DNA of 19,679 nt from Phycisphaerales bacterium (GCA_030628805.1 DAOVQG010000044.1:1-19679); one strand, 5' to 3'. Positions 433 through 17,082 are shown, numbered from the stretch's first letter. Notes: generated from the sequence alone by a model not told the origin. Program-made: numbers and translations.

Positions 433-1779
433 TTAGACCCGTCCCCGCATTTTACTGATGGCCACCTCCGCCGCGTTCACGAGCGGATACACGACCGGTG
501 ACGCCGTGAGGGCGGGATGGGTGCCGATCTGGAAGGTCGCAATGTCCTCAACGGTCATCCGCTTCTGCACACCAGCCGAAACCGCATTGATCATCTCACC
601 CGTTGCCGTGTCACCACGCACCTGGCCACCCAGTATGACGCCCGAATTCGCCTCAAAGACCGCTTTCATCTTTGTTTGGGCCATGCCGGGCATGCCGCCC
701 GGGTGCCGATTGGGCCCCTCGACGGTTGCGACCACCACGTCGTAGCCGTGCTGTCTGGCCATGGCCTCGGTCAGGCCGGCGGTACCGAGGGCGAAGTCGC
801 CCACGCAGGTCGACCACACTCCGACCGTGCCGTAGTTCTGACGCGTGATTCCAAACAGGTTCGCTCCGGCGATCCGAGCCTCCATTTGGGCAATCGAGGC
901 GAGCTTCAGGCCGGAAGGGCGGCCGCCAAAGAACGAGATTTTCTCGGCGCAGTCGCCGCACGCGAATACTGATGGATCCGAGGTCAGCATCGTCTGATCC
1001 ACCGCGATCCCGCCGGTTAAACCAATGCGCAGGCCGGCCTTCTTTGCCAGGTCCACGTTAGCCACCGCGCCGATACCGAGTATCACGGCGTCCGCCATTA
1101 TTTCGGAGCCGTCGGATAGCAGGACGGATTTAACGTGATCCCGGCCCTGAATTTGCTCGACCTTCGCGGCCGTCTTGATCGCAATTCCACGAGAGGCGAG
1201 CACCTCCTCCATCTCAACGCAGAATTCGTCATCGTAAGCCAGGCTGAGACAGTGTGGCATCATCTCCACGATCGTGACGTTGGCGTTGCCCATCTTCTTG
1301 ATTTCATCAGCGAACTCGATCCCGATGAACCCGCCGCCGATAATGACGACGTCCTTGGCGGCCTGAAGGCGCTCGAACAGCCGCCGCAAGTAATCGATGT
1401 CTTTCTGAATCGCGAAAACGCCATCGATATCAAACCCGGGAATCGGCGGCATGATCGGCAAGGAACCGGTTGCCATCACCAGACGGTCGTAACGTACACT
1501 CTCCGCGCTCGCATGGAGGAGCTTCTTGTCTCGATCGAGCTCGGTAACGTCAGCTTTCAACAGCTCGATGTTGTTGGCCTCGTACGGCGCGTCCGGCATG
1601 ACATTCTTCTCCGGGTCCTTGAGCGTACCGAAGATGTAAGGAATCCCGCACGGGACGAGAACCTGCTCCTCACGCCGGACGACAAGAACCCGCTTGCTTG
1701 GATAGTGGCGACGCGCCGTGAGGGCCGCTGTTAATCCGGCGGCGCTGCCGCCTATGACAACTACGTCTCTCTCTTTCAT
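433..1779 (-). CDS. FAD-dependent pyridine-nucleotide-disulfide oxidoreductase of the CoA-disulfide reductase / NADH oxidase / NADH peroxidase family.
   Basis: 448 aa. There is an N-terminal GxGxxG FAD fold (VVVIGGSAAGLTAA). A redox-active Cys sits in the VPCGIPY context typical of the Nox/CoADR family. A second NAD(P)-binding GxGxxG is present (VVIIGGGFIGIEFA). There is no rhodanese extension. The start ATG at 1779 directly abuts the TGA of the upstream thioesterase, with GGAG about 10 nt upstream. Confidence 0.85.
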   Translation of the reverse strand: MKERDVVVIGGSAAGLTAALTARRHYPSKRVLVVRREEQVLVPCGIPYIFGTLKDPEKNVMPDAPYEANNIELLKADVTELDRDKKLLHASAESVRYDRLVMATGSLPIMPPIPGFDIDGVFAIQKDIDYLRRLFERLQAAKDVVIIGGGFIGIEFADEIKKMGNANVTIVEMMPHCLSLAYDDEFCVEMEEVLASRGIAIKTAAKVEQIQGRDHVKSVLLSDGSEIMADAVILGIGAVANVDLAKKAGLRIGLTGGIAVDQTMLTSDPSVFACGDCAEKISFFGGRPSGLKLASIAQMEARIAGANLFGITRQNYGTVGVWSTCVGDFALGTAGLTEAMARQHGYDVVVATVEGPNRHPGGMPGMAQTKMKAVFEANSGVILGGQVRGDTATGEMINAVSAGVQKRMTVEDIATFQIGTHPALTASPVVYPLVNAAEVAISKMRGRV

Positions 1780-2238
1780 TCATTCTTCTCCATGCCGTTG
1801 CTTCGTAATCCGTGCCTGGTCCATGAACTTTCCGCGTGCCGTGGCCATGAGCTGACCGTTTTGTACGACCTCAGCTTTGAGCACGTGCAAGGGAGGAGAG
1901 CAGCGTTCCACCCAGGCCCGCACGGTGACGGCCACGCCCGTGCGCACCGGATGCCGAAAGCGCACCGTCAGTTCCGCCGTCACGGCCGGGATGCCGTGAG
2001 CAAACATGCAATTGGTCATCGCGCCGTCCAGGAGGGAGGCAACCACACCACCGTGCAGCATACCTGCATAACCTTCAAAGGCTGCGTCGCAATCGAAGCG
2101 CGCCTGCACGCGGCCGTCGTCGGACGCCGCAAACTTCAGTCGCATGCTCCGGTCATTTGAGGGGCTACAGACCACGCAGTTTGAATGTACTTGGGCGCGC
2201 ACCTGCTGCAACCCGTCTTGGGCGCACTCAATGGTCAC
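1780..2238 (-). CDS. Hotdog-fold acyl-CoA thioesterase (PaaI/4HBT-like).
   Basis: 152 aa with the PaaI-type core HGGVVASLLDGAM about 60 residues from the start, as in PaaI. The GTG start at 2238 overlaps the end of the upstream Mrp gene by 11 nt. An alternative ATG at 2145 (MRLKF...) has GGAG just upstream. The stop abuts the next gene's ATG. Confidence 0.7.
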   Translation of the reverse strand: MTIECAQDGLQQVRAQVHSNCVVCSPSNDRSMRLKFAASDDGRVQARFDCDAAFEGYAGMLHGGVVASLLDGAMTNCMFAHGIPAVTAELTVRFRHPVRTGVAVTVRAWVERCSPPLHVLKAEVVQNGQLMATARGKFMDQARITKQRHGEE

Positions 2239-3451
2239 AGATGTTCTCTCCGGCCTGTAACGCTCCGTTCAGGTATGCGGTTGCCAACTGCTCGGGCGTC
2301 TCGGCCGGTGCGCCCACGACGACAGTGATGCCGTTTTGCGCGAACAGTTGCTGTGCCCGCTGGCCCATGCCGCCGGTAATGATCACGTTGGCGCCAAGCT
2401 CGTGCAGCCAGCGCGGCAGGGCTCCCGGCTCGTGGGATGGTGGCTTGTGCATGGTCTTGCCGAGGATCGCCTTGTCATCCTCGTTGACCTCGTACAGTGC
2501 GAACTCCTCGCAATGTCCAAAGTGCATGCTCACACGTCCTGCCTGTACAGGGATTGCAATCTTCATACGACGATCCTCCTTGCCTTGATTCTCTGTTGCG
2601 ACACTGGCGTGTGCTGGTGTTTGTTGTCCCAGGAGCAAGCCCACGACGTCGGCGAACGCCTGGGCGCCGAGACTGTTCGTACGGTTGTCAATGAACGGGA
2701 TTCCCGCATCGCCTGATGTAACGATATCCGGATCGATCGGGATCGATCCCAGGAATGGCACGCTCATTTCATCAGCCAGGGCCTTGCCGCCACCTTTCTT
2801 GAACAAATCGATTTGCTGCCCACAGTTTGGGCAAACAAAGCCGCTCATATTCTCCACGATTCCCGCAACCGGCAACGACAGACTGTTGCAGAAGGACACG
2901 CAGCGGCGCACGTCCGCGACAGCCAGGTCTTGCGGCGTAGTTACGATCACGGCCTCCGCCGGCGAACCGACGAGCTGAGCGACCGACAGCGGTTCGTCCC
3001 CCGTTCCCGGCGGTGAATCGACGACCAAGACATCCAGGTTGCCCCAAGCGACGTTTGTCAGGAATTGGCGTATGAGGTGAAACTTGCGCGGGCCGCGCCA
3101 GATCACGGGCTCGTTACCACTGGGCAACAGGAACCCGATCGACATGACCGCCAGTTTGTCGTTCATGTGGACCGGCGACATGTCCTCTCCGGAAACGCCG
3201 ATCTGCTTACCCTCCAGCCCCAGTAGTTTCGGAATGCTCGGTCCGTGGACGTCGACGTCCAGGAGGCCGACGGCCTTGCCGGCTAGTGCCAGGGATACCG
3301 CCAGGTTGGCAGCCACGGTGCTCTTCCCGACGCCGCCTTTGCCCGACAGGACGAGCAGCTTTCGTCGGATGGTCTTCATCCGGGCTTGAAGCATCTGCTC
3401 GTCACGCTGCCGCTGGGCCTCGTCAATTGGTTGTGCCTGTTGCTGTGACAT
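2228..3451 (-). CDS. Mrp/NBP35/ApbC-family P-loop ATPase fused to a C-terminal NifX/NifB-C-term-like (Nitro_FeMo-Co) domain.
   Basis: It contains the deviant Walker A LSGKGGVGKST and the Mrp-signature CPNCG (CxxC). The C-terminal roughly 110 aa (MKIAIPVQAGRVSMHFGHCEEFALYEV...VIITGGMGQRAQQLF...GITVV) match the NifX-like domain family. I chose the ATG at 3451 (MSQQQ...) because AGGAG lies 5 nt upstream. The ORF-track start at 3523 would overlap the upstream gene by 100 nt. Confidence 0.85.
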   Translation of the reverse strand: MSQQQAQPIDEAQRQRDEQMLQARMKTIRRKLLVLSGKGGVGKSTVAANLAVSLALAGKAVGLLDVDVHGPSIPKLLGLEGKQIGVSGEDMSPVHMNDKLAVMSIGFLLPSGNEPVIWRGPRKFHLIRQFLTNVAWGNLDVLVVDSPPGTGDEPLSVAQLVGSPAEAVIVTTPQDLAVADVRRCVSFCNSLSLPVAGIVENMSGFVCPNCGQQIDLFKKGGGKALADEMSVPFLGSIPIDPDIVTSGDAGIPFIDNRTNSLGAQAFADVVGLLLGQQTPAHASVATENQGKEDRRMKIAIPVQAGRVSMHFGHCEEFALYEVNEDDKAILGKTMHKPPSHEPGALPRWLHELGANVIITGGMGQRAQQLFAQNGITVVVGAPAETPEQLATAYLNGALQAGENICDH

Positions 3452-4346
3452 TTGGACTCCTGAGCGTCTCCAGGACGTTTGCCCAGAGTTGTCGAACATC
3501 GGCCGTGACACCGTCCGTTGCATACTCGGTGATGGACTGCATCCTGATCTGAGCCTCCGTGATGGCCCGATCGTAGCGAACTCTCCCCGCCACCTTAAGA
3601 CCGCGGCGGCGCGCCAAGGCTTCGATGTTTAGCGTGAGATTCTCGTTTATATCCCATTTGTTGATGCAAATCAGCGTTTCGACGCGGAAATGCCTGGTCA
3701 AATCTGATACACGTTCCAGATCATGCCGGCCGCTTAATGTCGGCTCCGTAACTACCAAGGCCAAATCAGCCCCTGTTATCGAGGCGATCACCGGACAGCC
3801 GATGCCTGGTGAGCCATCAATGAGAACCAGATCACGCGCGCGGCTTTTGGCGGTCTCCCGCGCCCGCTCGCGAACCAGGCTGACCAGCTTGCCGGAATTC
3901 TCTTCCGCGATACCTAACTTGGCATGCACCATCGGTCCGGCGCGCGTCTCGGATACGAACCACTCCCCGTTGATCGCGGGAGCAAACTCGATGGCCTCCT
4001 CGGGGCAGAACCAAGCACAGACGCCGCAACCCTCGCAGGCGATCGGATCGATGCGATACGCCTTTTCGCGCTGCCCTTCATCGGCTTCGCGGGAAGAAAC
4101 CGCATCAAACCGGCACACTTCCGCGCATTTCCCACAGGCCGTGCAGCGTTCGGGCATAATCCGGGCCTGCGAGCCGCCGGAAAACGTCTCGCGTTTGACA
4201 ATCGTCGGGTCCAGGACGAGATGGAGATCGGCCGCGTCGACGTCGCAATCCGCCAGAACGGCGTTTTCGGCCAGCGTGGCGAACGCGGCCACGATCGACG
4301 TCTTTCCTGTCCCGCCCTTGCCACTGATGATGACCAGTTCTTTCAT
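3423..4346 (-). CDS. MinD/CooC-superfamily P-loop ATPase with an inserted 2x[4Fe-4S] ferredoxin domain (COG1149-like), copy 1.
   Basis: MKELVIISGKGGTGKTS Walker A is followed by CTACGKCAEVC and CEGCGVCAWFCP, two CxxCxxCxxxC motifs. The ATPase body then resumes (VLIDGSPGIGCPV...). The ATG at 4346..4344 overlaps the TGA of the upstream methyltransferase as ATGA, which points to translational coupling. Confidence 0.85.
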   Translation of the reverse strand: MKELVIISGKGGTGKTSIVAAFATLAENAVLADCDVDAADLHLVLDPTIVKRETFSGGSQARIMPERCTACGKCAEVCRFDAVSSREADEGQREKAYRIDPIACEGCGVCAWFCPEEAIEFAPAINGEWFVSETRAGPMVHAKLGIAEENSGKLVSLVRERARETAKSRARDLVLIDGSPGIGCPVIASITGADLALVVTEPTLSGRHDLERVSDLTRHFRVETLICINKWDINENLTLNIEALARRRGLKVAGRVRYDRAITEAQIRMQSITEYATDGVTADVRQLWANVLETLRSPNVTATGTTN

Positions 4347-4918
4347 GAAGCGGTTCCCGTCTTTCGAAGCCTTTCCGGGCGGAAACCTCTGGCCCAAATG
4401 AGCCGGCGTCGCTCAATCAATCGCACCGAGGTTTCCTGATACCCAGCCTTATCGAGCATCCCGGCCAACTCCTCCGGGCTGTAGTAATCCTCACCCCACA
4501 GACGTTGCGCCAGCGAATCCCGTGGGAATTCCACAATCAGGATCTCCCCGCCGGGGCGCAAGACACGCTTGGCTTCCCGCAGGATTGTCCTGGCGTGTTT
4601 CATCTCGTGCAGGGCCCACAGCACTACGACCGCGTCCACGGATTCGTTCGCTGCGAAGTCAAGATGAGCTGCGTCTTTTCGAACGTAGCGAATCCGCGCG
4701 TTCCTGGATGAGCGAGGCCGTTTTGGAAAGTCCGCCGAGGAGATGTCAACCCCGGTGACGTGCTGGCGATACACTTGGGCCAGGTATTTCACCAACCCGC
4801 ACGCGCCACAGCCGAGATCGAGGACGCGACCAGCCAGACGCAATTCGCGCCCGATCCGCTCATACAGTCGCGGCTTGATCCTGTCGTAGAAGTTCATCTT
4901 CAGCATTTTGCCGGACAC
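4343..4918 (-). CDS. Class I SAM-dependent methyltransferase (Methyltransf_11/25-like).
   Basis: Motif I is VLDLGCGACG. There is an acidic post-I residue (VDIS) and a motif-II-like VDAVVVLWALHE. RPGGEILIVE is also present. The GTG at 4918 has GGAG 8 nt upstream. Alternative ATGs lie at 4906 and 4897. Confidence 0.8.
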   Translation of the reverse strand: MSGKMLKMNFYDRIKPRLYERIGRELRLAGRVLDLGCGACGLVKYLAQVYRQHVTGVDISSADFPKRPRSSRNARIRYVRKDAAHLDFAANESVDAVVVLWALHEMKHARTILREAKRVLRPGGEILIVEFPRDSLAQRLWGEDYYSPEELAGMLDKAGYQETSVRLIERRRLIWARGFRPERLRKTGTAS

Positions 4919-4961
4919 GCTTTTAACTCCGTGCCGTCGCGACCTTGTGTTCCTCTTCCAT

Positions 4962-5912
4962 TCATTGAGGCGCGCTATCGTCGTCTGTTCGTTTCGCGAA
5001 TCGGTAGAACGCTCCCGCGCCGCTACCCTCGCAGACCAGCACGTGCTCCCTGAGCAACTCGTCCAAGTACTTCACGACCTCATTGGAATGCAGTCCGAGC
5101 CCGGTGGCCAGATCGTTCAGTGTACACGGGCGCCGCATCAAGAGGTTGAGAATATCCTCCCGGCGGGCCTGATAATACTCGCCATGATGTACGGTTTGGT
5201 ATTCAGCGATCACCTCGGCGCGGTCTCCGAAGAGCCGAGCGGCCTGTGTGAGTTCGTCAAGCGGCACCGGCCGGGCAAATGCCTCGCAGGGGGGGCGTGT
5301 TACCGTGTTCAACTGCACGCGGTCGGGCATAATCCGATCTAGCCAGCGAGCAATCCTCTCCTGCTGGATGCCGGCTGCGTTTAGACCTTTCAGGAGAAAC
5401 ACCTCGAGCCAGAGCGGTTTGGAGAACCGCTGCCGAAACTCCTCGATTCCAGTTACCATGCGGTCGAAGAGAATCGCCGCGTGCGGCCGGTTTACCCACT
5501 GGAACGTGGCCTCGTCGCCGGCGTCCAGCGAGGGGATGACGAGATCCGCTTCCAGGAGCGCTTCCTGCACGTCACGGTCCCACAGCAGCGACCCGTTCGT
5601 CAGCACGGCGACGGGCCGGTCGGTTCTTTCCTTGATCCCCGCGATCAGTGGCGCCAAACGGGAATACAAGGTGGGTTCGCCCGATCCGGACAACGTGACA
5701 TAGTCGGCTTCCGGTCCGGCCGCCAGCCGGCACTCGAGTTCCTCCAGGACTTCGTCCAACGGGACATATTCCTTCCGTTCAATGGTCTTGTTCGTCGTTC
5801 GGCCGAGCTGGCAATAGATGCAGTCGTAGGAGCACGTCTTGAACGGTACCAGGTCGATGCCCAGTGAACGCCCCAGCCGACGGGACGGCACGGGTCCGAA
5901 TACGTGGCTCAT
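4962..5912 (-). CDS. Radical SAM protein (COG0731-like Fe-S oxidoreductase) with a C-terminal winged-helix-like tail.
   Basis: The N-terminus FGPVPSRRLGRSLGIDL is followed by the canonical CxxxCxxC (CSYDCIYC). A GSGEPTL glycine-rich SAM motif is present. AGGTGA lies 4 nt upstream of the ATG at 5912. Confidence 0.85.
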   Translation of the reverse strand: MSHVFGPVPSRRLGRSLGIDLVPFKTCSYDCIYCQLGRTTNKTIERKEYVPLDEVLEELECRLAAGPEADYVTLSGSGEPTLYSRLAPLIAGIKERTDRPVAVLTNGSLLWDRDVQEALLEADLVIPSLDAGDEATFQWVNRPHAAILFDRMVTGIEEFRQRFSKPLWLEVFLLKGLNAAGIQQERIARWLDRIMPDRVQLNTVTRPPCEAFARPVPLDELTQAARLFGDRAEVIAEYQTVHHGEYYQARREDILNLLMRRPCTLNDLATGLGLHSNEVVKYLDELLREHVLVCEGSGAGAFYRFAKRTDDDSAPQ

Positions 5913-5980
5913 CGGGTCACCTGTAGCTTCCAGGGAGGGACGATCATGGTGTCATTATATCCAGGCCTACGTTTCTTCTA

Positions 5981-6295
5981 CTAATCCGCGCCATCCTGAT
6001 CGTGCGGGAGTCCACGGTGCGGAGCTTTCTGTCGCCGGCTTCCCAGGCGCAGAGCTGACAGGAAGAACGCGGAAATACCGCCGAACAGCCCGGCGAAAGC
6101 AGGCCCACCCGCGCACCCGGGCTGACCGCAGAACGGACACACGGAGAACGCGGTCAAGAACGCGAACAAGCCGGCCCACCACCCCAAAAAGCGGGCCAGC
6201 GGTGCCAGGAAGCGGCGCTTGGCCGATCGACACAATTTCCGTGTGCCAGGGCCGGCAGATTGTTCGGTGGTGCCGGACTCGTTCGCGCGACTCAT
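5981..6295 (-). CDS. Small (104 aa) putative membrane protein with a CPFCGQPGC motif.
   Basis: There are two hydrophobic segments (FLGWWAGLFAFLTAFSV and FAGLFGGISAFFLSAL) and a Cys triad. Its ATG at 6295 overlaps the TGA of the upstream MinD-Fd gene as ATGA. This coupling is my main reason to believe an ORF with no other support. Confidence 0.45.
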   Translation of the reverse strand: MSRANESGTTEQSAGPGTRKLCRSAKRRFLAPLARFLGWWAGLFAFLTAFSVCPFCGQPGCAGGPAFAGLFGGISAFFLSALRLGSRRQKAPHRGLPHDQDGAD

Positions 6296-7158
6296 GGTTC
6301 TCCTGTCCGATGCGGCAGCAACGACTCCTCCAGCCGGGCCTGAAGCTGTTCGAACGCCGCTTGAGTCTCCGGCACGGCGTCGATCACGAGCTCCCCGCGC
6401 GAATACGCCTCCGCGATGCGTCGGTCGTCTGGAATCTCAAGCAACACCGGAATCTGCTCGGCGGCACAGTAATCCACAACGCGGCCGTCGCCGACATCGG
6501 CGCGATTGATGACCACGCCGAACGGAAGCTCCAGTTGCCGCACGGTCTCCACCGCCAGTATCAGGTCATTGAGCCCAAACGGCGTCGGCTCGGTAACGAG
6601 CACGACGAAGTCACTATTAAGCACGGCCGTAATGACCGGACAGGACGTACCCGGCGGGGCATCGATGACGAGCCAGTCAACGTCCGGGGCCGCGGCCCTG
6701 ACCGCCTTGATCACCGGCGGACTTTGGGCCTCGCCCACGTTCAGCAGACCGTGCACAAACTGGACCGGGCCGGCCTGCCCGCGCTCCACGACGCCAATCT
6801 CTCGCGGCACCTCGATAATCGCCTGGCAGGGGCAGGCCAAGGCGCAGCCGCCGCAGCCGTGGCACAGCTCCGGGTATACGAGGACCTTCTGTCCCAGACA
6901 CACGATCGCGCTGTATTGGCAAATCGCGCCGCACTGACCGCACTGCTCACACGCCTGTTCGATGACTCGCGGCACCGGTATCGCCACCGGCGTACGCTCA
7001 GCGAGGGCGGGTTTGAGGAACAGGTGTCCGTTGGGTTCTTCCACGTCGCAATCCAGGTACGCCGCGGAGCGTCCCTGGCGCGACACCGCCACGGCCAGAT
7101 TCGTGGCCAGTGTTGTTTTGCCGGTTCCGCCCTTGCCGCTGGCTATGGCTATTCTCAC
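6292..7158 (-). CDS. MinD/CooC-superfamily P-loop ATPase with an inserted 2x[4Fe-4S] ferredoxin domain, copy 2. It is a paralogue of 3423..4346.
   Basis: MRIAIASGKGGTGKTT Walker A with a GTG start at 7158. The motifs CEQCGQCGAIC and CHGCGGCALACP are present, and it has the same architecture as copy 1 (VIDAPPGTSCPV). Confidence 0.85.
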   Translation of the reverse strand: MRIAIASGKGGTGKTTLATNLAVAVSRQGRSAAYLDCDVEEPNGHLFLKPALAERTPVAIPVPRVIEQACEQCGQCGAICQYSAIVCLGQKVLVYPELCHGCGGCALACPCQAIIEVPREIGVVERGQAGPVQFVHGLLNVGEAQSPPVIKAVRAAAPDVDWLVIDAPPGTSCPVITAVLNSDFVVLVTEPTPFGLNDLILAVETVRQLELPFGVVINRADVGDGRVVDYCAAEQIPVLLEIPDDRRIAEAYSRGELVIDAVPETQAAFEQLQARLEESLLPHRTGEP

Positions 7159-7203
7159 TGCACACCGTGGCTCATTACAGCCGTTGGCCTGAACAAGCCA
7201 TGC

Positions 7204-7380
7204 CTATTCGGGAACACTGATTGCCTCGGTTGGGCATTCGGCCACGCACGCTGCACAGTCGATACAGTTCTCTTCATCAATGACTGCCTTTTCGTTCTCC
7301 AGCGCAATAACCTCTACTGGGCACACGTCAACGCATGCGCCGCATCCCGTACACTTTTCAACATCTACCGTCGCCGCCAT
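7204..7380 (-). CDS. Small 2x[4Fe-4S] ferredoxin (58 aa). It is not in the supplied ORF track.
   Basis: Reverse-strand translation gives MAATVDVEKCTGCGACVDVCPVEVIALENEKAVIDEENCIDCAACVAECPTEAISVPE*. The two CxxCxxCxxxCP motifs are perfect. AGGAAGGA lies 9 nt upstream of the ATG at 7380. It sits 4 nt after the stop of the upstream gene. Confidence 0.7.
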   Translation of the reverse strand: MAATVDVEKCTGCGACVDVCPVEVIALENEKAVIDEENCIDCAACVAECPTEAISVPE

Positions 7381-7384
7381 GCGG

Positions 7385-8080
7385 TTATCCTTCCTGTTCC
7401 AACTGCTGAATCCGCTGCTGCAATTGGCGCATTTGTTCGGTCATGGCATCCGCCTGCCGCTTGAGCATCGCCAACTCATCCTCCTTGCTGAGGTCTTGAC
7501 CCGGCGGCAACGTCGAAGCCGGATCGTCTCCTGGCGGTCCAGCACCCATGCCCATCCCGCGGCCCATGCCACCGCCGCGCCCCATGCCCCGTCCCATGCC
7601 GCCGCCTCGGCCCATACCACCACCCCTTCCCATCCCGCGGCCCATGCCCATGCCCCCACCGGACATCCGCGGTTGCTGGAATGGTGTCGGCTGGCCCTGA
7701 AGAGCGCTGGGCGCGCCAGCCATGCCGGCATGGCCGGGGACGTTTGGCTGTTCTGTCGGCTTGAGCTGACCGGCCTTGAACAGCTCGGCCACGTCCCGAA
7801 CCGTCCCAGAGCAGCCGATAATCACGCCGATGCCGGCTGCCGACAGGGTCTGATGGGCGTTCGGGCCGCAGTTGCCGGTCAGAACGTACTGGACGCCCTT
7901 GTCGGCCATGATCCGGGCCGACTGAATCCCGGCTCCCTGACCGAGCTCCTGGCTGGCGTTGTCAATCGCCTCGAAGCTCATGTCGTCGGTCTCGACGATC
8001 AGGAAATAGGGGCAGCGGCCGAAGCGCGGTTCAACACCCGACTCCAGCCGCGGTTCCGTAGCGGTAATTGCGATTTTCAT
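7385..8080 (-). CDS. NifX/NifB-C-term-like domain protein fused to a Gly-Met-Arg-rich repeat and a C-terminal coiled coil (DUF5320-like C-terminal module).
   Basis: The NifX-like domain is MKIAITATEPRLESGVEPRFGRCPYFLIVE...YVLTGNCGPNA...GIGVI. Residues 141-179 are GGGMGMGRGMGRGGGMGRGGGMGRGMGRGGGMGRGMGMG. The protein ends in the heptad-like LSKEDELAMLKRQADAMTEQMRQLQQRIQQLEQEG. AAAGGA lies about 13 nt upstream of the ATG at 8080. The ORF-track start at 8131 would run into the upstream gene. Confidence 0.8.
   Translation of the reverse strand: MKIAITATEPRLESGVEPRFGRCPYFLIVETDDMSFEAIDNASQELGQGAGIQSARIMADKGVQYVLTGNCGPNAHQTLSAAGIGVIIGCSGTVRDVAELFKAGQLKPTEQPNVPGHAGMAGAPSALQGQPTPFQQPRMSGGGMGMGRGMGRGGGMGRGGGMGRGMGRGGGMGRGMGMGAGPPGDDPASTLPPGQDLSKEDELAMLKRQADAMTEQMRQLQQRIQQLEQEG
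7544..7660 (-). repeat. In-frame tandem 15-nt (GMGRG) codon repeat.
   Basis: The nucleotide periodicity is visible as ccatgcc/ccgcgg units across 7540-7680. It encodes GMGRG/GGGMGRG units. Confidence 0.8.
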
Positions 8081-8127
8081 GTGTGTTGTTGTCCTTTCGT
8101 TTAGCAGTCCGCCGCAACAGTCATGAT

Positions 8128-9039
8128 TCACAGTCCCGCGGAACCTGCGTCCTCGATTTCATTCGTGTCCCCGGCGGCAACCCGGGCGTGCCTCGATCTC
8201 CGCAGAATCAGACTGCCGACGCGGCAGCCCAGATCTCTGGCGATCACGGGGCATTTTGCCTTGAGCACAAAGAAGATGTCCTTCTCCACCTCGTTGAGCG
8301 TCTCATAGTTGCCCTGACCTTTCGCGACGATCATGTCTGCCGCGTCGAAACGGTGCCGGAACTCGCTGCTGCAATCGTCGAGAATCGTGCCCGGCGCATC
8401 CGAACCGTTGTCGATGACTTCGACCAGCCCGGGAATCCCCGCGGCCTGCGTGTCGGCGATCGTCACATCATTGATCACCGGAAAGCCCCGCACGGCCACG
8501 GTCACCTTCTCGACCGGCATCTGTTCGAGCAACAGCCGGTCGAACACGATCTCCCCGGCGTTGTCGGCCAAATAGAGAATTCTTCGCGCCCCGGACAGCG
8601 TCTCGGCAAAGGCACGCATGTCGCCGTCCAGCGGTGCCGACGAAGCATCTTCAATCGCCTCGTGCAAGGCAGGTTCGTCAAAGTGGGCCTTGACGCCCAT
8701 GTCAATGACATTGCCGGCGATCGCCAGCCGCAGAGCTGTCTCCAACGGACGGGATGAGGCGTGCACCCGAGCGCGCAGCTTCGGATAGAGCTCCAGCGCC
8801 ACCCGAGTGGAGTGATCCTTCAGCTCACGATACGGATCACTTTGACCCGTCAGGCGGCGAATCAGACGATGGATGCGTTGGCCCATCGCCGGCGGTGATT
8901 GCCACAGGTCCATTTCACTAGCGGCTCGCAGGATCTCTCGCAGCAGCCGCTCGTGAACCTCCTCGTCGTCGGTCACCAAGCGCACGGAATCAAGCGCCTG
9001 TCGGACGAAGCAGGGCACGCACTCAAGGTAGGTTTGCAT
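8128..9039 (-). CDS. DUF89 / ARMT1-like family protein (damage-control phosphatase-type fold).
   Basis: The N-terminus MQTYLECVPCFVRQALD and the internal KGQGNYE and GFPVINDVT regions match my memory of DUF89 signatures. The ATG is at 9039. Confidence 0.7.
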   Translation of the reverse strand: MQTYLECVPCFVRQALDSVRLVTDDEEVHERLLREILRAASEMDLWQSPPAMGQRIHRLIRRLTGQSDPYRELKDHSTRVALELYPKLRARVHASSRPLETALRLAIAGNVIDMGVKAHFDEPALHEAIEDASSAPLDGDMRAFAETLSGARRILYLADNAGEIVFDRLLLEQMPVEKVTVAVRGFPVINDVTIADTQAAGIPGLVEVIDNGSDAPGTILDDCSSEFRHRFDAADMIVAKGQGNYETLNEVEKDIFFVLKAKCPVIARDLGCRVGSLILRRSRHARVAAGDTNEIEDAGSAGL

Positions 9040-9505
9040 TGCTCGTGGCCGATCCTCTTAACCTGATGGCCCCGCGGGGGCACGCTTCCACACAGGCCCC
9101 GCAACCGCGGCAGGCCTCCGCGTTCACCGTGACGGCCGTCTCGCCCAGGGTGATCGCCTCGGTCGGACAGACCGTCTGGCAAACCCCACACAGGGTGCAC
9201 GCTGCTTCGTCGACACTCGCGACCAGCGGTGCATGAGCGGCGCGCCGTGCGGCCTCGCGCAACCTTACTGCGTCCAGGTGCTCCATGGCAAGGGTCTGGT
9301 CCTTCAAAGGGCTGAGCATCCGCGGTTTGGCCGGCGCGGCGCCTCTCGGAAGGTTCGGGGGCTGCGCTGTCCGATCACTCCTGCCGCCTTGGAGCGCGCG
9401 CCGCATGCGTCCGCCCCGGCCACGCCCGCGTCCCATTCCGCGGCCATCGCGACGACCACGACCACCAGCACCCGGCGGCCCCGTTCCGTCACCGCGCGGC
9501 ATCAT
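9023..9505 (-). CDS. Fusion of the DUF5320-like N-terminal motif and an RG-rich region with a C-terminal 2x[4Fe-4S] ferredoxin domain.
   Basis: The N-terminus is M(M)PRGDGTGPPGAGGRGRRDGRGMGRGRGRGG. The C-terminus has CTLCGVCQTVCP and CRGCGACVEACP. The ATG at 9505 overlaps the TGA of the upstream DUF5320 gene as TGATG. Its 3' end overlaps the DUF89 start by 17 nt. Confidence 0.75.
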   Translation of the reverse strand: MMPRGDGTGPPGAGGRGRRDGRGMGRGRGRGGRMRRALQGGRSDRTAQPPNLPRGAAPAKPRMLSPLKDQTLAMEHLDAVRLREAARRAAHAPLVASVDEAACTLCGVCQTVCPTEAITLGETAVTVNAEACRGCGACVEACPRGAIRLRGSATSNANLP

Positions 9506-9864
9506 CAACCCTCTTTTTCCTTGGCCGCCTCGAGTTCCGCGATCCGTTTCCTGATCTCACCGAGCGTGCCTTCAAAATGCTCCGCCTGAGCTCTCAGTGC
9601 TTGAACTTCCTGCTCGGCCATCACTGGCGGATAGTACGCCGCGGCCCCGTAAGCGGGCTGTGCGCCGACAACTCCCATCGGATAGTACCCATGGCGCCAT
9701 CCGCGGCCCCAGCCGCGCCCGCGGCCCCAGCCGCGGCCCATGCCCCAACCGCGCCCCGGCATCTGGTTCGTGTAACCGGGCATTGAAAACCCGGCGCAGT
9801 AACCTGCCGCTCGTCCCGTCATTGAGCCCAGTCCGGCAGGGCCCGTTCCATCTCCACCTGGCAT
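9505..9864 (-). CDS. DUF5320-family small protein with a conserved N-motif, an RGW repeat and a C-terminal coiled coil.
   Basis: The N-terminus is MPGGDGTGPAGLGSMTGRAAGYCAGF. The repeat is GRGWGMGRGWGRGRGWGRGW. The C-terminus is EQEVQALRAQAEHFEGTLGEIRKRIAELEAAKEKEG. AAGGAG lies 8 nt upstream of the ATG at 9864. Confidence 0.75.
   Translation of the reverse strand: MPGGDGTGPAGLGSMTGRAAGYCAGFSMPGYTNQMPGRGWGMGRGWGRGRGWGRGWRHGYYPMGVVGAQPAYGAAAYYPPVMAEQEVQALRAQAEHFEGTLGEIRKRIAELEAAKEKEG
9688..9756 (-). repeat. In-frame tandem codon repeat encoding GRGWG units.
   Basis: cgcggccccagccgcg-type 12-15 nt units are visible at 9690-9760. Confidence 0.7.
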
Positions 9865-9904
9865 GATGTTGCTCCTTTTTCAAAATGCCCTGGAATCCGT
9901 CAAC

Positions 9905-10090
9905 TTAGCTGCCCCTTCCACGTCCTGCATCGCTGCCTTGCCTCTGGCCACGACCGCTGCCGCGACCCCGTCTGGGCCGTTGGCCTTGTCCGCCGCCACC
10001 GCTCCCTTTTTTTCCGCCCTTGCAAGGCCCCAGACCTCTGCCGGTCCCGGAACCTTGTCCTTGCGGCCCAGTTCCATCGCCTGCCGGCAT
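9905..10090 (-). CDS. Short (61 aa) DUF5320-like protein with the N-motif followed by a Gly/Arg-rich tail.
   Basis: MPAGDGTGPQGQGSGTGRGLGPCKGG...RGRGSGRGQRQGS. A perfect AAGGAGGTGA Shine-Dalgarno lies 8 nt upstream of the ATG at 10090. The ORF-track N-terminus at 10186 runs through the RBS and the stop of the upstream gene, so I consider it spurious. Confidence 0.55.
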   Translation of the reverse strand: MPAGDGTGPQGQGSGTGRGLGPCKGGKKGSGGGGQGQRPRRGRGSGRGQRQGSDAGRGRGS

Positions 10091-10095
10091 TGTGA

Positions 10096-10509
10096 TCACC
10101 TCCTTTCGTGCTTGTCTGAAGACGAAAAGCGTTGCAGGTCGAGCGCCTGCATCCAATGTCCTTCTACAGTCGGCTCTCTGATACATTCAAGCTCCCCGCG
10201 CTTGAACTGCTCCACGGCCTGCCCCACGTGCCCAGTGGCCCCGACGTAGACCTCGACATCGCCGGCTTTCAGTCTGGCCAAGGCTTTGGGGCCGACCTTC
10301 CCGGTAATCACGGCATGCACGCCCAGTTTGAGGATGGCCTCGGCTGCCTTGATTCCTGCGTACCCGAGAATATTGAGATTCCCCTTGTTGTCGTGAACCG
10401 TAGACCGATCGGTCTCGGTATCAACCACCACGAAGAACCTGGCCCGCCCGAACCGCGGATCAAGCTCGGCCCCCAGATTCGATCCTCTTGATGTGACCGC
10501 TACCTTCAT
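10096..10509 (-). CDS. NifX/NifB-C-term-like (dinitrogenase FeMo-cofactor-binding fold) domain protein.
   Basis: MKVAVTSRGSNLGAELDPRFGRARFFVVVD...HAVITGKVGPKALARLKAGDVEVY. GGAGG lies 9 nt upstream of the ATG at 10509. That ATG overlaps the upstream TGA as ATGA. The ORF-track start at 10665 is implausible. Confidence 0.8.
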   Translation of the reverse strand: MKVAVTSRGSNLGAELDPRFGRARFFVVVDTETDRSTVHDNKGNLNILGYAGIKAAEAILKLGVHAVITGKVGPKALARLKAGDVEVYVGATGHVGQAVEQFKRGELECIREPTVEGHWMQALDLQRFSSSDKHERR

Positions 10510-10916
10510 GCCATCCCCCTCCAACGGCCCGCTCCTGGCCGGCCGCCGTGACGCCGACCTCCCCGAAACCGTCGGCGCCGACCGCAGCAGCCCGGCATCA
10601 AGAATGCCTCGTCCGGCAATTGCCCCGCGAGGAAGGCCCGTAGAACGTCCTCCACCGGCCCGCAAATTTGCGGTATGAGCCGTATTCCCGCGGAGGTCAA
10701 CATCGCCTCAAGCGGCCACGAGATCGCGCCGCAGATAAGCACGTGCACGCCGAGCGCCGTCACCCGGCTCGCCCTAGCCGCAAGCCGCGTTTCTTCGAGA
10801 TCCACCTCACTCCGGCCGATCTCGGCGTCACGCTCGACGTCTACCACCAGCAAACGCCTGGCGACGTCGAAGACCGGAGAAATCCGGCCGTCCCATGTTG
10901 GAAGCGCTACTCTCAT
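10506..10916 (-). CDS. NifX-like domain protein. It is the first gene of the array after the regulator.
   Basis: MRVALPTWDGRISPVFDVARRLLVVD...VLICGAIS...GIRLIPQICGPVEDV. The start is either the ATG at 10916 or a TTG at 10934. There is a basic Cys-Cys tail (MPGCCGRRRRFRGG). Confidence 0.7.
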   Translation of the reverse strand: MRVALPTWDGRISPVFDVARRLLVVDVERDAEIGRSEVDLEETRLAARASRVTALGVHVLICGAISWPLEAMLTSAGIRLIPQICGPVEDVLRAFLAGQLPDEAFLMPGCCGRRRRFRGGRRHGGRPGAGRWRGMA

Positions 10917-10970
10917 CACTGAGGACTCGTGCAAGACGCGCGCCGCCCCAGACGATCAGCCTCGATTCCT

Positions 10971-10987
10971 GGCGAAGTGTAGGCCAA
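10971..10987 (-). promoter_or_regulatory. Candidate sigma-54 (-24/-12) promoter for the array.
   Basis: The minus-strand sequence is TTGGCCTACACTTCGCC. The GG and GC dinucleotides have the correct 10-nt spacing (TGGC-N8-TCGC against consensus TGGCAC-N5-TTGC, 3 mismatches). It lies 35-55 nt upstream of the first start codon and directly downstream of a sigma-54 activator gene. Confidence 0.3.
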
Positions 10988-11035
10988 GCAAGCACTTACG
11001 CTCGCTCGCCCCGGCCTGACAATGAGCATCAGGCA

Positions 11036-11081
11036 TTGCATAATGCAAGCACCGCTGGCCGCCGGTCTTGCACACTGCAAT
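11036..11081 (-). promoter_or_regulatory. Cluster of TGCA-centred palindromes that are candidate upstream activator (enhancer) sites.
   Basis: TTGCAT-A-ATGCAA is a perfect 6+1+6 palindrome at 11036-11048. TGCAAG-N17-CTTGCA is an inverted repeat at 11044-11072. A further CTGCAA lies at 11075-11080. The sites sit 50-110 bp upstream of the putative -24 element, between the regulator's stop and the array. Confidence 0.3.
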
Positions 11082-11082
11082 A

Positions 11083-12450
11083 CTATTCCTTCTTCCGGCT
11101 CCCGTGCCCCGTATCCGGCAGTGCGATCCCCATGGACTTGATCTTGCGGAACAGAGTGCTGGGGTCAATGCCCAGCTCGCGGGCAGCGGCCGTACGGTTG
11201 CCGCCGTGCCGGCGGACTGCATCCGTGATGTGCATGGCCTCAAGGGCTTGCAGCGTGAGAGCGCCCTGGCCTCGCGGAGGCTTGAGGTCGGTGTCGCCAC
11301 GCATTGCTGGCGGCAGATGATGTGGTTCTATCAGGGCGCCTCGGCAAAGCACGAACGCGTGCTCGATGACGTTCTCGAGCTCGCGCACGTTGCCCGGATA
11401 GTCGTGTTCCATCAGCAGCGCCAGCGTCTCTTCCGAGATGCCGGCCACGTCTTTGTCCTGGAGGCGATTGAACTTACTGATGAAACGCTCCACCAGCAGC
11501 GGGATGTCCTCCCGGCGATCGCGCAACTCCGGCAGCTTCAGCCGGATCACGTTGATGCGATAAAACAGATCCTGCCTGAAAACGCCCTTCTTCACCAACC
11601 GGTTCAGGTCCTGGTTGGTGGCGGCGACCACGCGCACATCCACCTTCACCGGCTCGACGGACCCGAGTGGCTCGAACACTCTTTCCTGGAGGACGCGGAG
11701 CAACCGGGCCTGCATGGCGGGCGAGATATCACCGATTTCGTCGAGCAGGATCGTTCCGCCGTCCGCGCTTGCCAATCGTCCCGGCTTGTCGTGCCGGGCG
11801 TCGGTAAACGCGCCGGCCTTGTAGCCGAACAGCTCCGATTCCAACAGGGTGTCCGGCAGCGCGCCGCAATTGACCGCAACGAAACGCTTGTCACGGCGCG
11901 GCGAGAGGCTGTGCAACGCCCGGGCGACCAGCTCCTTGCCGGTACCGCTGGCGCCCTCGATGAGCACGGTTGTGTTGCTCTCGGCGATTTGCGGGAGCAG
12001 GTCGAAAAGCTGCCGCATCGCCGAACTGCGGCCGACGATGTCCGCGAACGTGTATTTCGCCTCCAACTCCTTGCGCAGCTCCTCCACCAGGCTGAGGTCC
12101 CGGAAGGTTTCCACACCACCGATCGTATCGCCAGCGGCGTTCTTCAGGGCTGCCGCCGAGATGCTGATAGGAATGCGCCGGCCATCGGCGTCGAGAATGT
12201 AGATGGCCTTATTCACGATCGACCGCCCGGAGCGGAGCGTCTCCTTCAGGGCACACTCGTTCTCGCAGATGCTCGCCCGGAACACGTCGCAGCACCGCCG
12301 CCCGATGGCTTCCGCACGTGGCACGCCCGTGATTTGCTCGGCCGCCCGGTTGAACGACGTGATCCGCCAATCCTCATCGACGGTGAAAACGCCGTCGGCG
12401 ATGGAGTCGAGGATAGTGTCCGTCACACGCTTCTCGGATGATGCGGTCAT
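11083..12450 (-). CDS. Sigma-54-dependent transcriptional activator (bacterial enhancer-binding protein) with PAS, AAA+ sigma-54-interaction and Fis-type HTH domains. It has no receiver domain.
   Basis: The N-terminal PAS domain has a CC-x7-C-x3-C cluster (RRCCDVFRASICENEC). The central domain has Walker A GASGTGKE, a GAFTDA variant of the GAFTGA loop, and RVVAATN. The C-terminal HTH is AARELGIDPSTLFRKIK. Confidence 0.9.
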   Translation of the reverse strand: MTASSEKRVTDTILDSIADGVFTVDEDWRITSFNRAAEQITGVPRAEAIGRRCCDVFRASICENECALKETLRSGRSIVNKAIYILDADGRRIPISISAAALKNAAGDTIGGVETFRDLSLVEELRKELEAKYTFADIVGRSSAMRQLFDLLPQIAESNTTVLIEGASGTGKELVARALHSLSPRRDKRFVAVNCGALPDTLLESELFGYKAGAFTDARHDKPGRLASADGGTILLDEIGDISPAMQARLLRVLQERVFEPLGSVEPVKVDVRVVAATNQDLNRLVKKGVFRQDLFYRINVIRLKLPELRDRREDIPLLVERFISKFNRLQDKDVAGISEETLALLMEHDYPGNVRELENVIEHAFVLCRGALIEPHHLPPAMRGDTDLKPPRGQGALTLQALEAMHITDAVRRHGGNRTAAARELGIDPSTLFRKIKSMGIALPDTGHGSRKKE

Positions 12451-12662
12451 GGCAGCTTCATCTGTTTCGCTTGAACAACCGCCACTATGCTAGTCTACGT
12501 GTCTGCCGCGAGGAAGCGCTCGTGCTGAAGCGCCTTCGTCTGCGTTCCCTCTTATAATTTTCCTCGCTACCAATAATTGTCCCGCTTGCGAGTGTGAGGT
12601 ACTATGCACCTGGAAGAAATCGGCGTGTCGGTGTGAATACCCTGTGCGTTGGCTCGCTTTAA

Positions 12663-12692
12663 TTGACACGGCCGCTTCGCCGGCGATATGCT
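12663..12692 (+). promoter_or_regulatory. Candidate sigma-70 promoter for the NfeD/flotillin operon.
   Basis: TTGACA at 12663-12668, then 17-18 nt, then ATATGC/TATGCT. It lies about 35 nt upstream of the GAGGGAA RBS and the ATG at 12728. Confidence 0.3.
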
Positions 12693-12727
12693 GGCCACGC
12701 TCACGCCGTGCCGAGTGAGGGAACATC

Positions 12728-13591
12728 ATGTGGACGGAACTTCTGGCCAGTTCGGCGGGCGATCTCCTGATGGGAGCGAACCTCCCGTTCGTGGCGTCGT
12801 TCTTGCTGGCGGTGCTGTTCACTCTGCTGAGCGTGTTGGGCCTGGGTCATTCCGACGCGGACGCCGACGTCGACGCTGATGCGGATCTGGATCATGACAT
12901 CGACCTCGATCACGATGTGGACGTGGACCTCGAGCACGACTTGGACCTGGAGGTCGATCACGATGTCGATCTCGAGGTTGACCATGACATTGATATGGAC
13001 GCCGACCACGATCTGGACGTGGACCATGACGTGGAGACCGAAATCGCGCACGATCATGATGTGGAACATGACGCCGAGGTCCACGCGGGGCACGAAGCCG
13101 GCGTTGACACGGTCTCGGCGATAACGCTTAACGACGTGCTGTACTTCTTCGGCATCGGGAAGGTTCCGCTATCGATCCTGCTGATGACGGCTTGTTACAC
13201 CTTCGGGCTGGTCGGCTGGCTGCTGAATACCAGCGCGGCTCGTCCGGGCGGCGAGGTGGGGGCGTGGTTTACGGTTAGTCTGCTGGGTGCCTTGACGGCT
13301 AGTCTGGTGATGATGCGCTTGGTCAGCAGTGTCATCGCCCGCTACCTGCCGACCAAGGGTGTTTCCGGCTTCACTCGCCGACAACTTGTCGGAATGCGGG
13401 GCGTGGTCGGTCTGCCGGTGGATGAGCAGGGCGGCCGGGCTCAGTTCACCGATCCCGAGGGAACGCTGCACCAGATCCGCTGTCGAGTCGTGCCCGGCGG
13501 TAAGCCGTTGCCGAAGGGCGCGAAGATCATAGTGGTTAAGTATTTGCTCAAGGATGACCTGTACTACGTTGCCGCCGACCGGCGCCGTTAA
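12728..13591 (+). CDS. NfeD-family membrane protein (C-terminal OB-fold) carrying an 81-residue alternating acidic repeat insert.
   Basis: There is an N-terminal TM helix, then the (D/E-X)n repeat at residues 43-123, then two more hydrophobic helices. The C-terminal domain GMRGVVGLPVDEQGGRAQFTDPEGTLHQIRCRVVPGGKPLPKGAKIIVVKYL is typical of NfeD short forms. A flotillin gene lies immediately downstream. GAGGGAA lies 7 nt upstream of the ATG. Confidence 0.8.
   Translation: MWTELLASSAGDLLMGANLPFVASFLLAVLFTLLSVLGLGHSDADADVDADADLDHDIDLDHDVDVDLEHDLDLEVDHDVDLEVDHDIDMDADHDLDVDHDVETEIAHDHDVEHDAEVHAGHEAGVDTVSAITLNDVLYFFGIGKVPLSILLMTACYTFGLVGWLLNTSAARPGGEVGAWFTVSLLGALTASLVMMRLVSSVIARYLPTKGVSGFTRRQLVGMRGVVGLPVDEQGGRAQFTDPEGTLHQIRCRVVPGGKPLPKGAKIIVVKYLLKDDLYYVAADRRR
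12854..13096 (+). repeat. In-frame GAC/GAT-N3 codon repeat encoding a strictly alternating (Asp/Glu)-(aliphatic/His) 81-residue tract.
   Basis: The peptide is DADADVDADADLDHDIDLDHDVDVDLEHDLDLEVDHDVDLEVDHDIDMDADHDLDVDHDVETEIAHDHDVEHDAEVHAGHE. 37 of 41 odd positions are Asp or Glu. Confidence 0.85.
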
Positions 13592-16469: not shown

Positions 16470-16747
16470 CGTACGCGTCCTCCTGTGTGTAGGGACATTC
16501 CAGTACCGCGTTTCATGGATACGCTGACCATGACAGACCCAGAGAGCCGCAGGCTTTAGCCTACGCGGCGCCGCGCGGGCTTCACGCCCTCTGTCCGCTA
16601 GTCGCATAACCAATGAGACACGGTACTTGAAGCGATGTCAACGGCGTTGCAGCCACCGACGGGTATGCTGGTCCCGGATACCCTGACCTCCGCGGGTTCA
16701 TTTGTGACTATTTTCGGGCCGCGGTTTGACGTGGAAGCGGAGGGTGA

Positions 16748-16888
16748 ACGAGGTTTCGGGGACCAGCGGGTCGCGGGATCGTGACCTCGCACGGCGGTTC
16801 GATTAACATCGAGAGCCGGTCCGGCCAGTGTACGCGGTTTGAAATCCGTCTGCACATCAGCGGGCCGGAAGAGACTCAGACCGCCTGA
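16748..16888 (+). pseudogene. Remnant C-terminal fragment of a histidine-kinase ATPase domain.
   Basis: Translation gives ...RGIVTSHGGSINIESRSGQCTRFEIRLHISGPEETQTA*. This resembles the canonical HK G2-box/C-terminus (HGGxIxVES-xxGxGTxFxxxLP). The reading frame is closed by a TGA at 16745, with no upstream kinase body. Confidence 0.45.
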
Positions 16889-16994
16889 CAGAACCGGGAG
16901 CGTAAGCGACCGGCCAGCTCCGCCACCCGCGTATTTGCGTGGCCCCTCGCTCACGCTCGGGGTTCTGTTAGGGACTTTCAGGAGGCTGCTCAAG

Positions 16995-17054
16995 ATGGCG
17001 CCCGCGACTGAGAGGGAACGCATCCTGGTCGTCGATGACGCGCCCGAAGCCCTG
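16995..17054 (+). pseudogene. Remnant N-terminal fragment of a response-regulator receiver.
   Basis: AGGAGG precedes ATG-MAPATERERILVVDDAPEAL, a typical receiver N-terminus. Similarity is lost after about 20 aa. The continuing frame (to 17132) overlaps the 3' end of the convergent permease gene. Confidence 0.4.
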
Positions 17055-17082
17055 GGCCGCCGATTCACTACAACAGCACCAC

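Follow-up and report, generated by a model that had tools for sequence, protein, structure and literature searches.

A stretch of 19,679 nucleotides from a Phycisphaerales bacterium (GCA_030628805.1, DAOVQG010000044.1:1-19679; the whole stretch is hereafter called the window) contains an intergenic region of 148-166 bp between a gene for a sigma-54-type enhancer-binding protein (EBP) and orpA1, the first gene of a downstream array. This gap is probably a sigma-54 promoter region that depends on an enhancer and belongs to the OrpR/orp type, which is known from Desulfovibrio vulgaris Hildenborough (DvH) and its 'orange protein' (orp) cluster, a reading to which a probability of approximately 0.8 was assigned from sequence comparison. 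The original prediction for this DNA had interpreted the gap as a sigma-54 promoter region activated by the EBP, with palindromes serving as upstream activating sequences (UASs). This interpretation was supported by an excess of palindromes, by their conservation, and by the fixed geometry of the elements in approximately 80 genome loci and approximately 15 independent metagenome loci, and the promoter is now assigned to a site 40 nt downstream of the -24/-12 element picked at that time, partly outside the region then delimited.

Conserved blocks in the EBP-orpA1 gap

The 19.7-kb window contains two exact matches to TTGCANNNTGCAA (TTGCA-N3-TGCAA), and both are located in the gap; the number expected is 0.01, and none of 200 shuffled sequences contained two or more exact palindromes. 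The first copy (UAS1) begins 3 nt past the stop codon of the EBP gene and is centred 158 nt upstream of the orpA1 ATG; the corresponding distance for the second copy (UAS2) is 126 nt. The -24 GG of the promoter at 10945..10930 lies approximately 130 bp downstream of the first centre and 98 bp downstream of the second. From centre to centre, the two copies are 32 bp apart (approximately three helical turns). Because of this spacing, both sites would be presented on the same face of the DNA, and the nucleation of an AAA+ oligomer is possible. The arrangement agrees with that of EBP-bound UASs in general, which are dyads found some 80-200 bp before the promoter, as a rule in tandem and in helical phase. 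The palindrome quoted in the original prediction, TTGCATAATGCAA, is indeed present at 11036-11048 (plus strand) and far above chance, but it had been parsed incompletely: TGCAAG-N17-CTTGCA, which also exists (11044-11049/11067-11072), had been taken for a separate inverted repeat, whereas its N17 arrangement is just a second copy of the same 13-bp palindrome.

Related loci were collected by scanning one genome per species with the activator protein, which yielded 80 loci (64-86% identity), mostly from metagenome-assembled genomes of Planctomycetota/Phycisphaerae and some from Hydrogenedentota, Acidobacteriota, and 'Deltaproteobacteria'. In layout A, which is that of the window, the EBP gene is followed by a gap of approximately 165 nt and a co-directional orpA1; in layout B, which is that of DvH, an orpA1 operon is divergent from the EBP gene, and an orpA2 operon is located approximately 170 nt downstream. 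In two loci (L005 and L015), orpA1 and its UAS pair reside more than 1 kb from the EBP gene. The 21 layout-A spacers (alignment A1) and 57 orpA1 upstream regions of both layouts were aligned with MAFFT, which was needed because an ungapped, promoter-anchored stack of the 57 regions blurred the UASs through shifts of 1-3 nt. Four conserved blocks were identified in both alignments, namely UAS1, UAS2, a central block, and the promoter.

TGCA-N3-TGCA was found at an offset of +3 past the EBP stop codon in 22 related loci, and its density across 79 related loci was 6.17 per kb in the 80 nt past this codon versus 0.09 per kb elsewhere (68-fold). In most loci with an orp gene directly downstream, the palindrome is located 3 nt past the stop, often with a second copy approximately 32 nt further on, and is followed by a near-consensus promoter. 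The 57 copies found 'elsewhere' are mostly pairs 31-33 bp apart, and nearly all of them are found either between divergent EBP and orpA1 genes or immediately before an orpA1 that has been displaced, as in five loci where orpA1 lies 0.3-1.4 kb away with the palindromes alongside (L005, L015, L014, L034, and L043). In divergent loci, the modal UAS centres are at -158/-125 relative to the orpA1 ATG (-158/-126 in the window). These positions in displaced and divergent loci indicate that the palindromes follow the orpA1 promoter and not the 3' end of the EBP gene.

The predicted promoter, CGGCGCGCGTCTTGCA at 10945..10930 (minus strand), scored 12.6 bits and ranked third among 39,328 window positions when scored with a weight matrix trained on 38 promoters from related loci but not on the window (training range, 11.7-20.8 bits). 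Its GG and GC are exactly 10 nt apart, in a context like the TGGCAC-N5-TTGCW of sigma-54 promoters. All 20 relatives of the same layout carry TGGCACG-N4-TTGC at the corresponding position, 128-150 nt past the EBP stop codon (137 nt in the window). Simple patterns were of little use in this 62% GC sequence: loose GG-N10-GC strings occur at chance level (76 found versus 66 expected), as does the tighter GGCRC-N5-YTGC (2 versus 2.1), and discrimination was achieved only by position-specific scoring and conservation.

The central block is located between the UASs and the promoter, and its tAA...TTa arrangement recurs in this interval across 57 loci; in A1, the 'AA' (10997/6) and 'TT' (10976/5) columns are nearly invariant. 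The block carries CAA-N4-TTA-like cores and contains AAGCAAGCACTTA (10986-10998, plus strand), which resembles the consensus for integration host factor (IHF) with one mismatch to WATCARNNNNTTR. The element picked in the original prediction (10971-10987) falls in this block. Because the DvH orp promoters depend on the binding of IHF to the DNA that separates UAS and promoter, at -79 in the case of orp1 (PMC3897727), a role in IHF binding or bending is the most economical reading, and the block is a putative DNA-bending or IHF site.

When metagenomes were scanned without bias for two exact copies of the palindrome separated by a gap of 18-20, at least 120 contigs matched (L081-L200). Approximately 17 of the matches listed are orpR/orpA1 loci; among the matches listed, the predicted promoter of such loci is located 89-101 nt past the palindrome pair in 11 of 13 cases (77 and 85 nt in the others), compared with 90 nt in the window. 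At the level of predicted sites, these loci are an independent confirmation of the palindrome-promoter geometry. The scan also returned an EBP family from gut metagenomes (L103, L107, L136, L148, L150, and L159) with the palindrome pair and a sigma-54 promoter 92 nt away, a group characterized by TTGCAAGTTGCAAG...CTTGCAACTTGCAA (L093, L115, L156, and L194) with a sigma-54-like site 53 nt away, and many soil contigs (e.g. L081, L108, L124, and L171) with an AT-rich, TATA-like spacer between the two palindromes.

Several other promoter-like strings were noted in the window. A sigma-70-like match at 11016-11044 (plus strand; CTGACA-17-CATAAT) is directed antisense into the EBP gene, and its -10 element coincides with the variable N3 centre of UAS2; it was treated as a chance occurrence. 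TGGCATGGCTGCTGCT (17162-17177, minus strand), with 13.6 bits the joint best score in the window, overlaps the ATG of an open reading frame (ORF; 16598-17173) and the 3' end of a gene for an 808-aa protein, and no UAS was seen there. A weak sigma-54-like string, TGGCCAGCATATCGCC (12697..12682, minus strand; 6.2 bits), precedes the EBP start by approximately 235 nt, has no palindrome in its vicinity, and is probably due to chance.

The activator and its likeness to OrpR

In the 455-aa EBP, the Pfam domains PAS_9/PAS_4, Sigma54_activat (3.8e-68), AAA_lid_14, and HTH_8 (helix-turn-helix; HTH) were identified, and there is no receiver domain. The PAS domain contains a Cys triad (C53/C62/C66) and an acidic residue (D55) with spacing identical to that of C52/C61/C65 and D/E54 in DvH OrpR, which bind a [4Fe-4S] cluster (PMC8359166). 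The three Cys residues are kept in 79-80 of the 80 relatives and D/E55 in 78 of them. The sigma-54 contact loop has the sequence GAFTDA (...YKAGAFTDARHD...), a variant that has also been listed for DVU2106 (PMC4641369). NCBIfam has no OrpR model, and all of its EBP equivalog models scored below their cut-offs for the window EBP. The hallmarks of OrpR that are present comprise the domain set, the Cys triad with the acidic residue, the GAFTDA loop, and a location next to orp genes, one of which encodes a protein that scores as an NCBIfam equivalog of MrpORP. These features support the earlier suggestion that the array is switched by whatever the Cys-rich PAS domain senses, and this domain is most likely the switch. 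The recognition helix of the HTH domain, PSTLFRKIK, is conserved among the relatives to the same degree as the palindrome motif. Covariation between the HTH domain and the motif was considered as a further line of evidence and was found to be uninformative, since both are too conserved. From co-localization, geometry, and the equally conserved recognition helix, we infer that the EBP binds the palindromes.

By its domain assignments, the gene content of the window cluster is that of the DvH orp cluster, which is controlled by sigma-54, IHF, and the EBP OrpR/DVU2106 (PMC3897727, PMC8359166; Fievet et al. 2014, 2021). Both systems possess a one-component PAS-AAA+-HTH activator with a C-X8-C-X3-C motif plus an acidic residue and the GAFTDA loop, and in both the EBP gene adjoins operons for Nitro_FeMo-Co proteins, MinD-like Fe-S ATPases, and MrpORP. 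DvH orp1, like the window, has two palindromes approximately 31-32 bp apart upstream of the -24/-12 element, with a conserved or IHF element in between, and the site centres are located at -152/-121 relative to the start codon in DvH orp1 and at -158/-126 in the window. In many relatives of the window locus, the layout is also that of DvH, with the orpA1 operon divergent and a further operon downstream.

The two systems differ in several respects. The recognition sequence is TTGCA-N3-TGCAA in the window and GGGCGYRTTTTGCGCCC in DvH; recognition of the DvH palindrome is a lineage-specific rather than a family-defining trait, and DNA specificity differs between the two. In DvH, the UAS overlaps the promoter of the EBP gene itself; such an overlap is impossible in the window, where the EBP gene is co-directional with orpA1 and its stop codon adjoins the UAS. 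The window promoter ends 14 nt before the ATG without a Shine-Dalgarno (SD) sequence, whereas DvH orp1 has a 35-nt spacer with GGAGG, and both orp1 and orp2 of DvH have SD leaders. The window cluster is also larger, containing DUF5320, ARMT1, radical SAM, methyltransferase, and other genes, and its host is Planctomycetota/Phycisphaerae-like and not a sulfate reducer, in contrast to D. vulgaris. Judged from the hallmarks and the gene linkage, the window region may be regarded as the OrpR/orp-type counterpart in a Planctomycetota-like genome.

The predicted arrangement also resembles those of NtrC/glnAp2 and NifA/nifH, in which tandem dyad sites are located on the same DNA face approximately 100-150 bp upstream of a GG-N10-GC promoter and looping is often aided by IHF. 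Activators of the NtrC/NifA type are ATP-dependent AAA+ proteins with a GAFTGA-type loop and a Fis-like HTH domain, and the sites are TGCACC-N5-GGTGCA for NtrC and TGT-N10-ACA for NifA. The window system differs from them in its sensor, which is an Fe-S PAS domain and not a receiver or GAF domain, in the sequence of its sites, and in its predicted leaderless transcript.

In the proposed mechanism, dimers of the adjacent PAS-AAA+-HTH EBP would bind TTGCA-N3-TGCAA at 11068-11080 and 11036-11048 and nucleate an AAA+ oligomer, and the IHF-like central block (10973-11000) would probably bend the DNA. The oligomer would contact sigma-54 RNA polymerase in a closed complex at cGGCGCgcgtcTTGCa (10945..10930), followed by ATP-driven opening. 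Transcription from within approximately 3 nt of the orpA1 ATG at 10916 would yield a leaderless orp mRNA for the NifX-like and DUF5320 proteins, the MinD/Mrp Fe-S ATPases, and MrpORP. Judged by its homology with the OrpR of D. vulgaris, the PAS domain would hold a redox-sensitive [4Fe-4S] cluster through C53/C62/C66 and D55; the orp cluster would be expressed at low redox potential, and oxidation would shut it off with DNA binding kept. Sigma-54 dependence, the involvement of IHF, the position of the transcription start site (TSS), the redox signal, and the extent of the transcript are all predictions made from the DNA sequence. If they hold, the experimentally defined redox switch of Desulfovibrio OrpR would extend to many uncultured anaerobes (Planctomycetota and others), and the cis-code of these loci would consist of the TTGCA-N3-TGCAA pair, the central bend block, and the -24/-12 element at fixed spacing.

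Points against the reading and alternative explanations

Several observations weigh against an OrpR/orp-type promoter region. The palindrome is wholly unlike the DvH OrpR site, of which no match was found in the gap; the sole window match with three or fewer mismatches is intragenic (4554-4570) and at chance level. With the DvH site absent, the assignment of the palindromes to the EBP draws on co-localization and geometry only. The promoter is among the weaker ones in its family (12.6 bits versus a median of 17), with C for T before the GG and G for A at position 5, and the scores of the relatives (11.6-20.8 bits) are partly circular, since the training sites were picked by a consensus-based score. 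In the window, the sequence of the IHF-like block is degenerate (CT-ACAC-TTC versus the consensus AA-N4-TTA), and the 15 window-wide matches to the IHF-like pattern, against 8.6 expected, are not significant alone. No rpoN gene was found in the window. In addition, at least 100 of the metagenome contigs that carry the double palindrome lack a neighbouring orp or EBP gene, which suggests that other transcription factors recognize similar sites; as judged from these contigs, the palindrome motif alone is not OrpR-specific.

This last point bears on one alternative, namely that the palindromes are bound by another regulator (a repressor or a second activator) and that the EBP acts from solution or from another site. 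The difference from the DvH site, the frequency of the same double palindrome in contigs lacking orp and EBP genes, and the TATA-like, AT-rich spacers in many such contigs, which suggest operator pairs at sigma-70 promoters, are all in keeping with this alternative. In OrpR-like loci, however, the pair always accompanies the EBP gene and orpA1 and is located 89-101 nt upstream of the sigma-54 promoter, where EBPs bind; the recognition helix of the EBP is as conserved as the motif, and no other regulator gene adjoins the gap in the window. A different regulator is thus considered unlikely. Even less support was obtained for an RNA hairpin that terminates or attenuates EBP transcription. The pair does begin 3 nt past the EBP stop codon and can fold as a 23-bp interrupted stem (-28.7 kcal/mol), but such a fold is not unusual for the composition (z = -1.59; 12 of 200 shuffles fold equally well), a T-tract is absent, there are no terminator-like sites in 10400-12900, and no Rfam family matched the hairpin, the gap, or the window. 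Moreover, divergent orpA1 genes are preceded by the same pairs although no gene terminates there, and the pairs stay with orpA1 in loci where more than 1 kb separates it from the EBP gene. The dismissal of a terminator in the original prediction therefore stands, termination or attenuation here being very improbable, and the palindrome pair fits the role of a UAS.

A further alternative concerns the promoter itself. The -24/-12 element that had been proposed, TTGGCCTACACTTCGCC (10987..10971, minus strand), could be the functional promoter or a second, tandem one, in which case the 5' untranslated region would be approximately 45 nt and the palindromes would be centred at approximately -80/-112. 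The string is present, its GG-N10-GC is correctly spaced, its TGGC/TCGC cores resemble those of Escherichia coli glnAp2, the distance to the UASs would be typical, and with a rank of 27 among 39,328 positions it is not a bad site in absolute terms. Its score of 5.8 bits is nevertheless lower than that of every training promoter (minimum, 11.7 bits), and the loose pattern that it matches occurs at chance level. None of the 20 relatives has a sigma-54-like site at this position (at most 5.8 bits, with most scores negative). The spacer of the closest relative (L002) aligns with that of the window position by position; there, the string is GAGCATACACTTCGCC, with GA in place of GG and the flanks kept. 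Furthermore, the 'TTCGC' of TTGGCCTACACTTCGCC derives from one half of the central block, the conserved TTAC(G), and a leader starting from this element would have no SD sequence. A promoter at this position is therefore quite unlikely, and the distances given with it (approximately 40 nt to the start codon and 50-110 bp to the palindromes) do not apply to the conserved promoter at 10945..10930, which ends 14 nt before the ATG.

Predicted transcript, gene cluster, and further observations

In the window, the spacer between the C of the -12 element and the orpA1 start codon is 14 nt (10916-10931, minus strand). A promoter-like site was found for 56 of 58 orpA1 genes, and the corresponding spacer is 12 nt in 4 loci, 13 nt in 13, 14 nt in 27, 15 nt in 7, 16 nt in 3, and 20 nt in 2; it is thus 13-15 nt long in 47 and 12-16 nt long in 54 of the 56 loci. 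In the alignment, the length of the spacer is conserved but its sequence is not, and an SD-like motif was found upstream of just 4 of the 58 orpA1 genes. Orp genes of the paralogous orpA2 type, by contrast, have leaders of 23-50 nt with AGGAG. Transcription from sigma-54 promoters starts approximately 12-14 nt past the GC. Given the 14-nt spacer, the lack of an SD sequence, and this start geometry, the orpA1 mRNA is predicted to be leaderless or nearly so. Within the orpA1 module, the distances that separate the two UASs, the putative bend site, the -24/-12 element, and the start codon vary by no more than a few nucleotides. The chances appear to be about even that the orpA1 operons of this widespread OrpR-like family are expressed as enhancer-dependent leaderless mRNAs, which would start at the AUG or at most 3 nt from it within a rigid UAS1-UAS2-bend-promoter-ATG module. 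No described case of a sigma-54-dependent leaderless mRNA was found in the searchable literature. That a constant 13-15 nt separates the -12 element from the ATG suggests that transcripts from a sigma-54 promoter are translated without a leader, which, if true, would be relevant to research on both sigma-54 and translation initiation.

The EBP gene and the whole cluster (12450..433) are co-directional on the minus strand (Table 1), and operon membership past the first genes is predicted from strand and spacing. The start codon of orpA1 is ATG 10916 and not TTG 10934, which appears in a mechanical ORF list as the first possible start of a 142-aa ORF but is in fact part of the TTGC of the -12 element. 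The ATG column is invariant in the 21-locus alignment, and the resulting N-terminus, MRVALPTWDGR, matches those of the homologues. Since the TTG lies in the -12 element, the left boundary of the gap that had been derived from it cuts through the promoter; this part of the annotation is corrected here.

Table 1. Positions of the predicted regulatory elements and of the genes of the orp-type cluster in the window
Feature	Coordinates	Strand	Basis or remarks
OrpR-like EBP gene, 455 aa	12450..11083	-	PAS with Cys triad, sigma-54 AAA+, Fis-type HTH (Pfam)
Candidate UAS1, 13-bp palindrome TTGCAgtgTGCAA (minus-strand reading)	11068..11080		Exact pattern and first conserved block
Candidate UAS2, 13-bp palindrome TTGCAttaTGCAA	11036..11048		Exact pattern and second conserved block
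Central conserved block, CGTAAGtgcttgcttggcctacaCTTCG in the window	10973..11000	-	Consensus CGTAAC-N~19-TTACG
Predicted sigma-54 promoter cGGCGCgcgtcTTGCa	10930..10945	-	GG 10944/10943, GC 10932/10931; fourth conserved block
Predicted TSS zone	10916..10919	-	12-15 nt past the C of the -12 GC; leader of 0-3 nt; from sigma-54 geometry
orpA1, Nitro_FeMo-Co (NifX/NifB-like), first array gene	10916..10506	-	PF02579, 7.5e-09
Second Nitro_FeMo-Co (NifX-like) gene	10512..10096	-	Pfam
DUF5320 gene	9864..9505	-	Pfam
DUF5320-2x[4Fe-4S] (ferredoxin) gene	9508..9023	-	Pfam
ARMT1/DUF89 gene	9039..8128	-	Pfam
Nitro_FeMo-Co+DUF5320 fusion	8080..7385	-	Pfam
MinD-like+Fer4 ATPase, 4Fe-4S motifs	7158..6292	-	Pfam
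Radical SAM gene	5912..4962	-	Pfam
Methyltransferase gene	4918..4343	-	Pfam
MinD-like+Fer4 ATPase, 4Fe-4S motifs	4397..3423	-	Pfam
MrpORP	3523..2228	-	NCBIfam equivalog, 523 bits versus cut-off of 450
Thioesterase	2238..1780	-	Pfam
Pyridine-nucleotide disulfide oxidoreductase	1779..433	-	Pfam

A gap of 231 nt at the boundary between the second Nitro_FeMo-Co gene and the DUF5320 gene (9865-10095, minus strand) contains no recognizable ORF or Pfam match, and some relatives carry an additional DUF5320 gene near the equivalent position. Arg/Gly/Met-rich repeats (GRGMGRGGGMGRG...), which are typical of DUF5320, were found in three proteins (7385-8080, 9023-9508, and 9505-9864, minus strand), where the fusion partner is either a NifX-like or a 2x[4Fe-4S] ferredoxin domain.

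Outside the cluster, a membrane protein of the YqiJ_N family (12728-13591, plus strand) contains a long Asp/His-rich repeat (DADADVDADADLDHDIDLDHDVDVDLEHD...) near its N-terminus, which is possibly metal-binding, and the next gene (13678-15726) encodes a 682-aa SPFH/flotillin-like protein. The 808-aa protein mentioned above (17083-19509, minus strand) consists of an SBP_bac_1 solute-binding protein fused to a BPD_transp_1 ABC permease domain.

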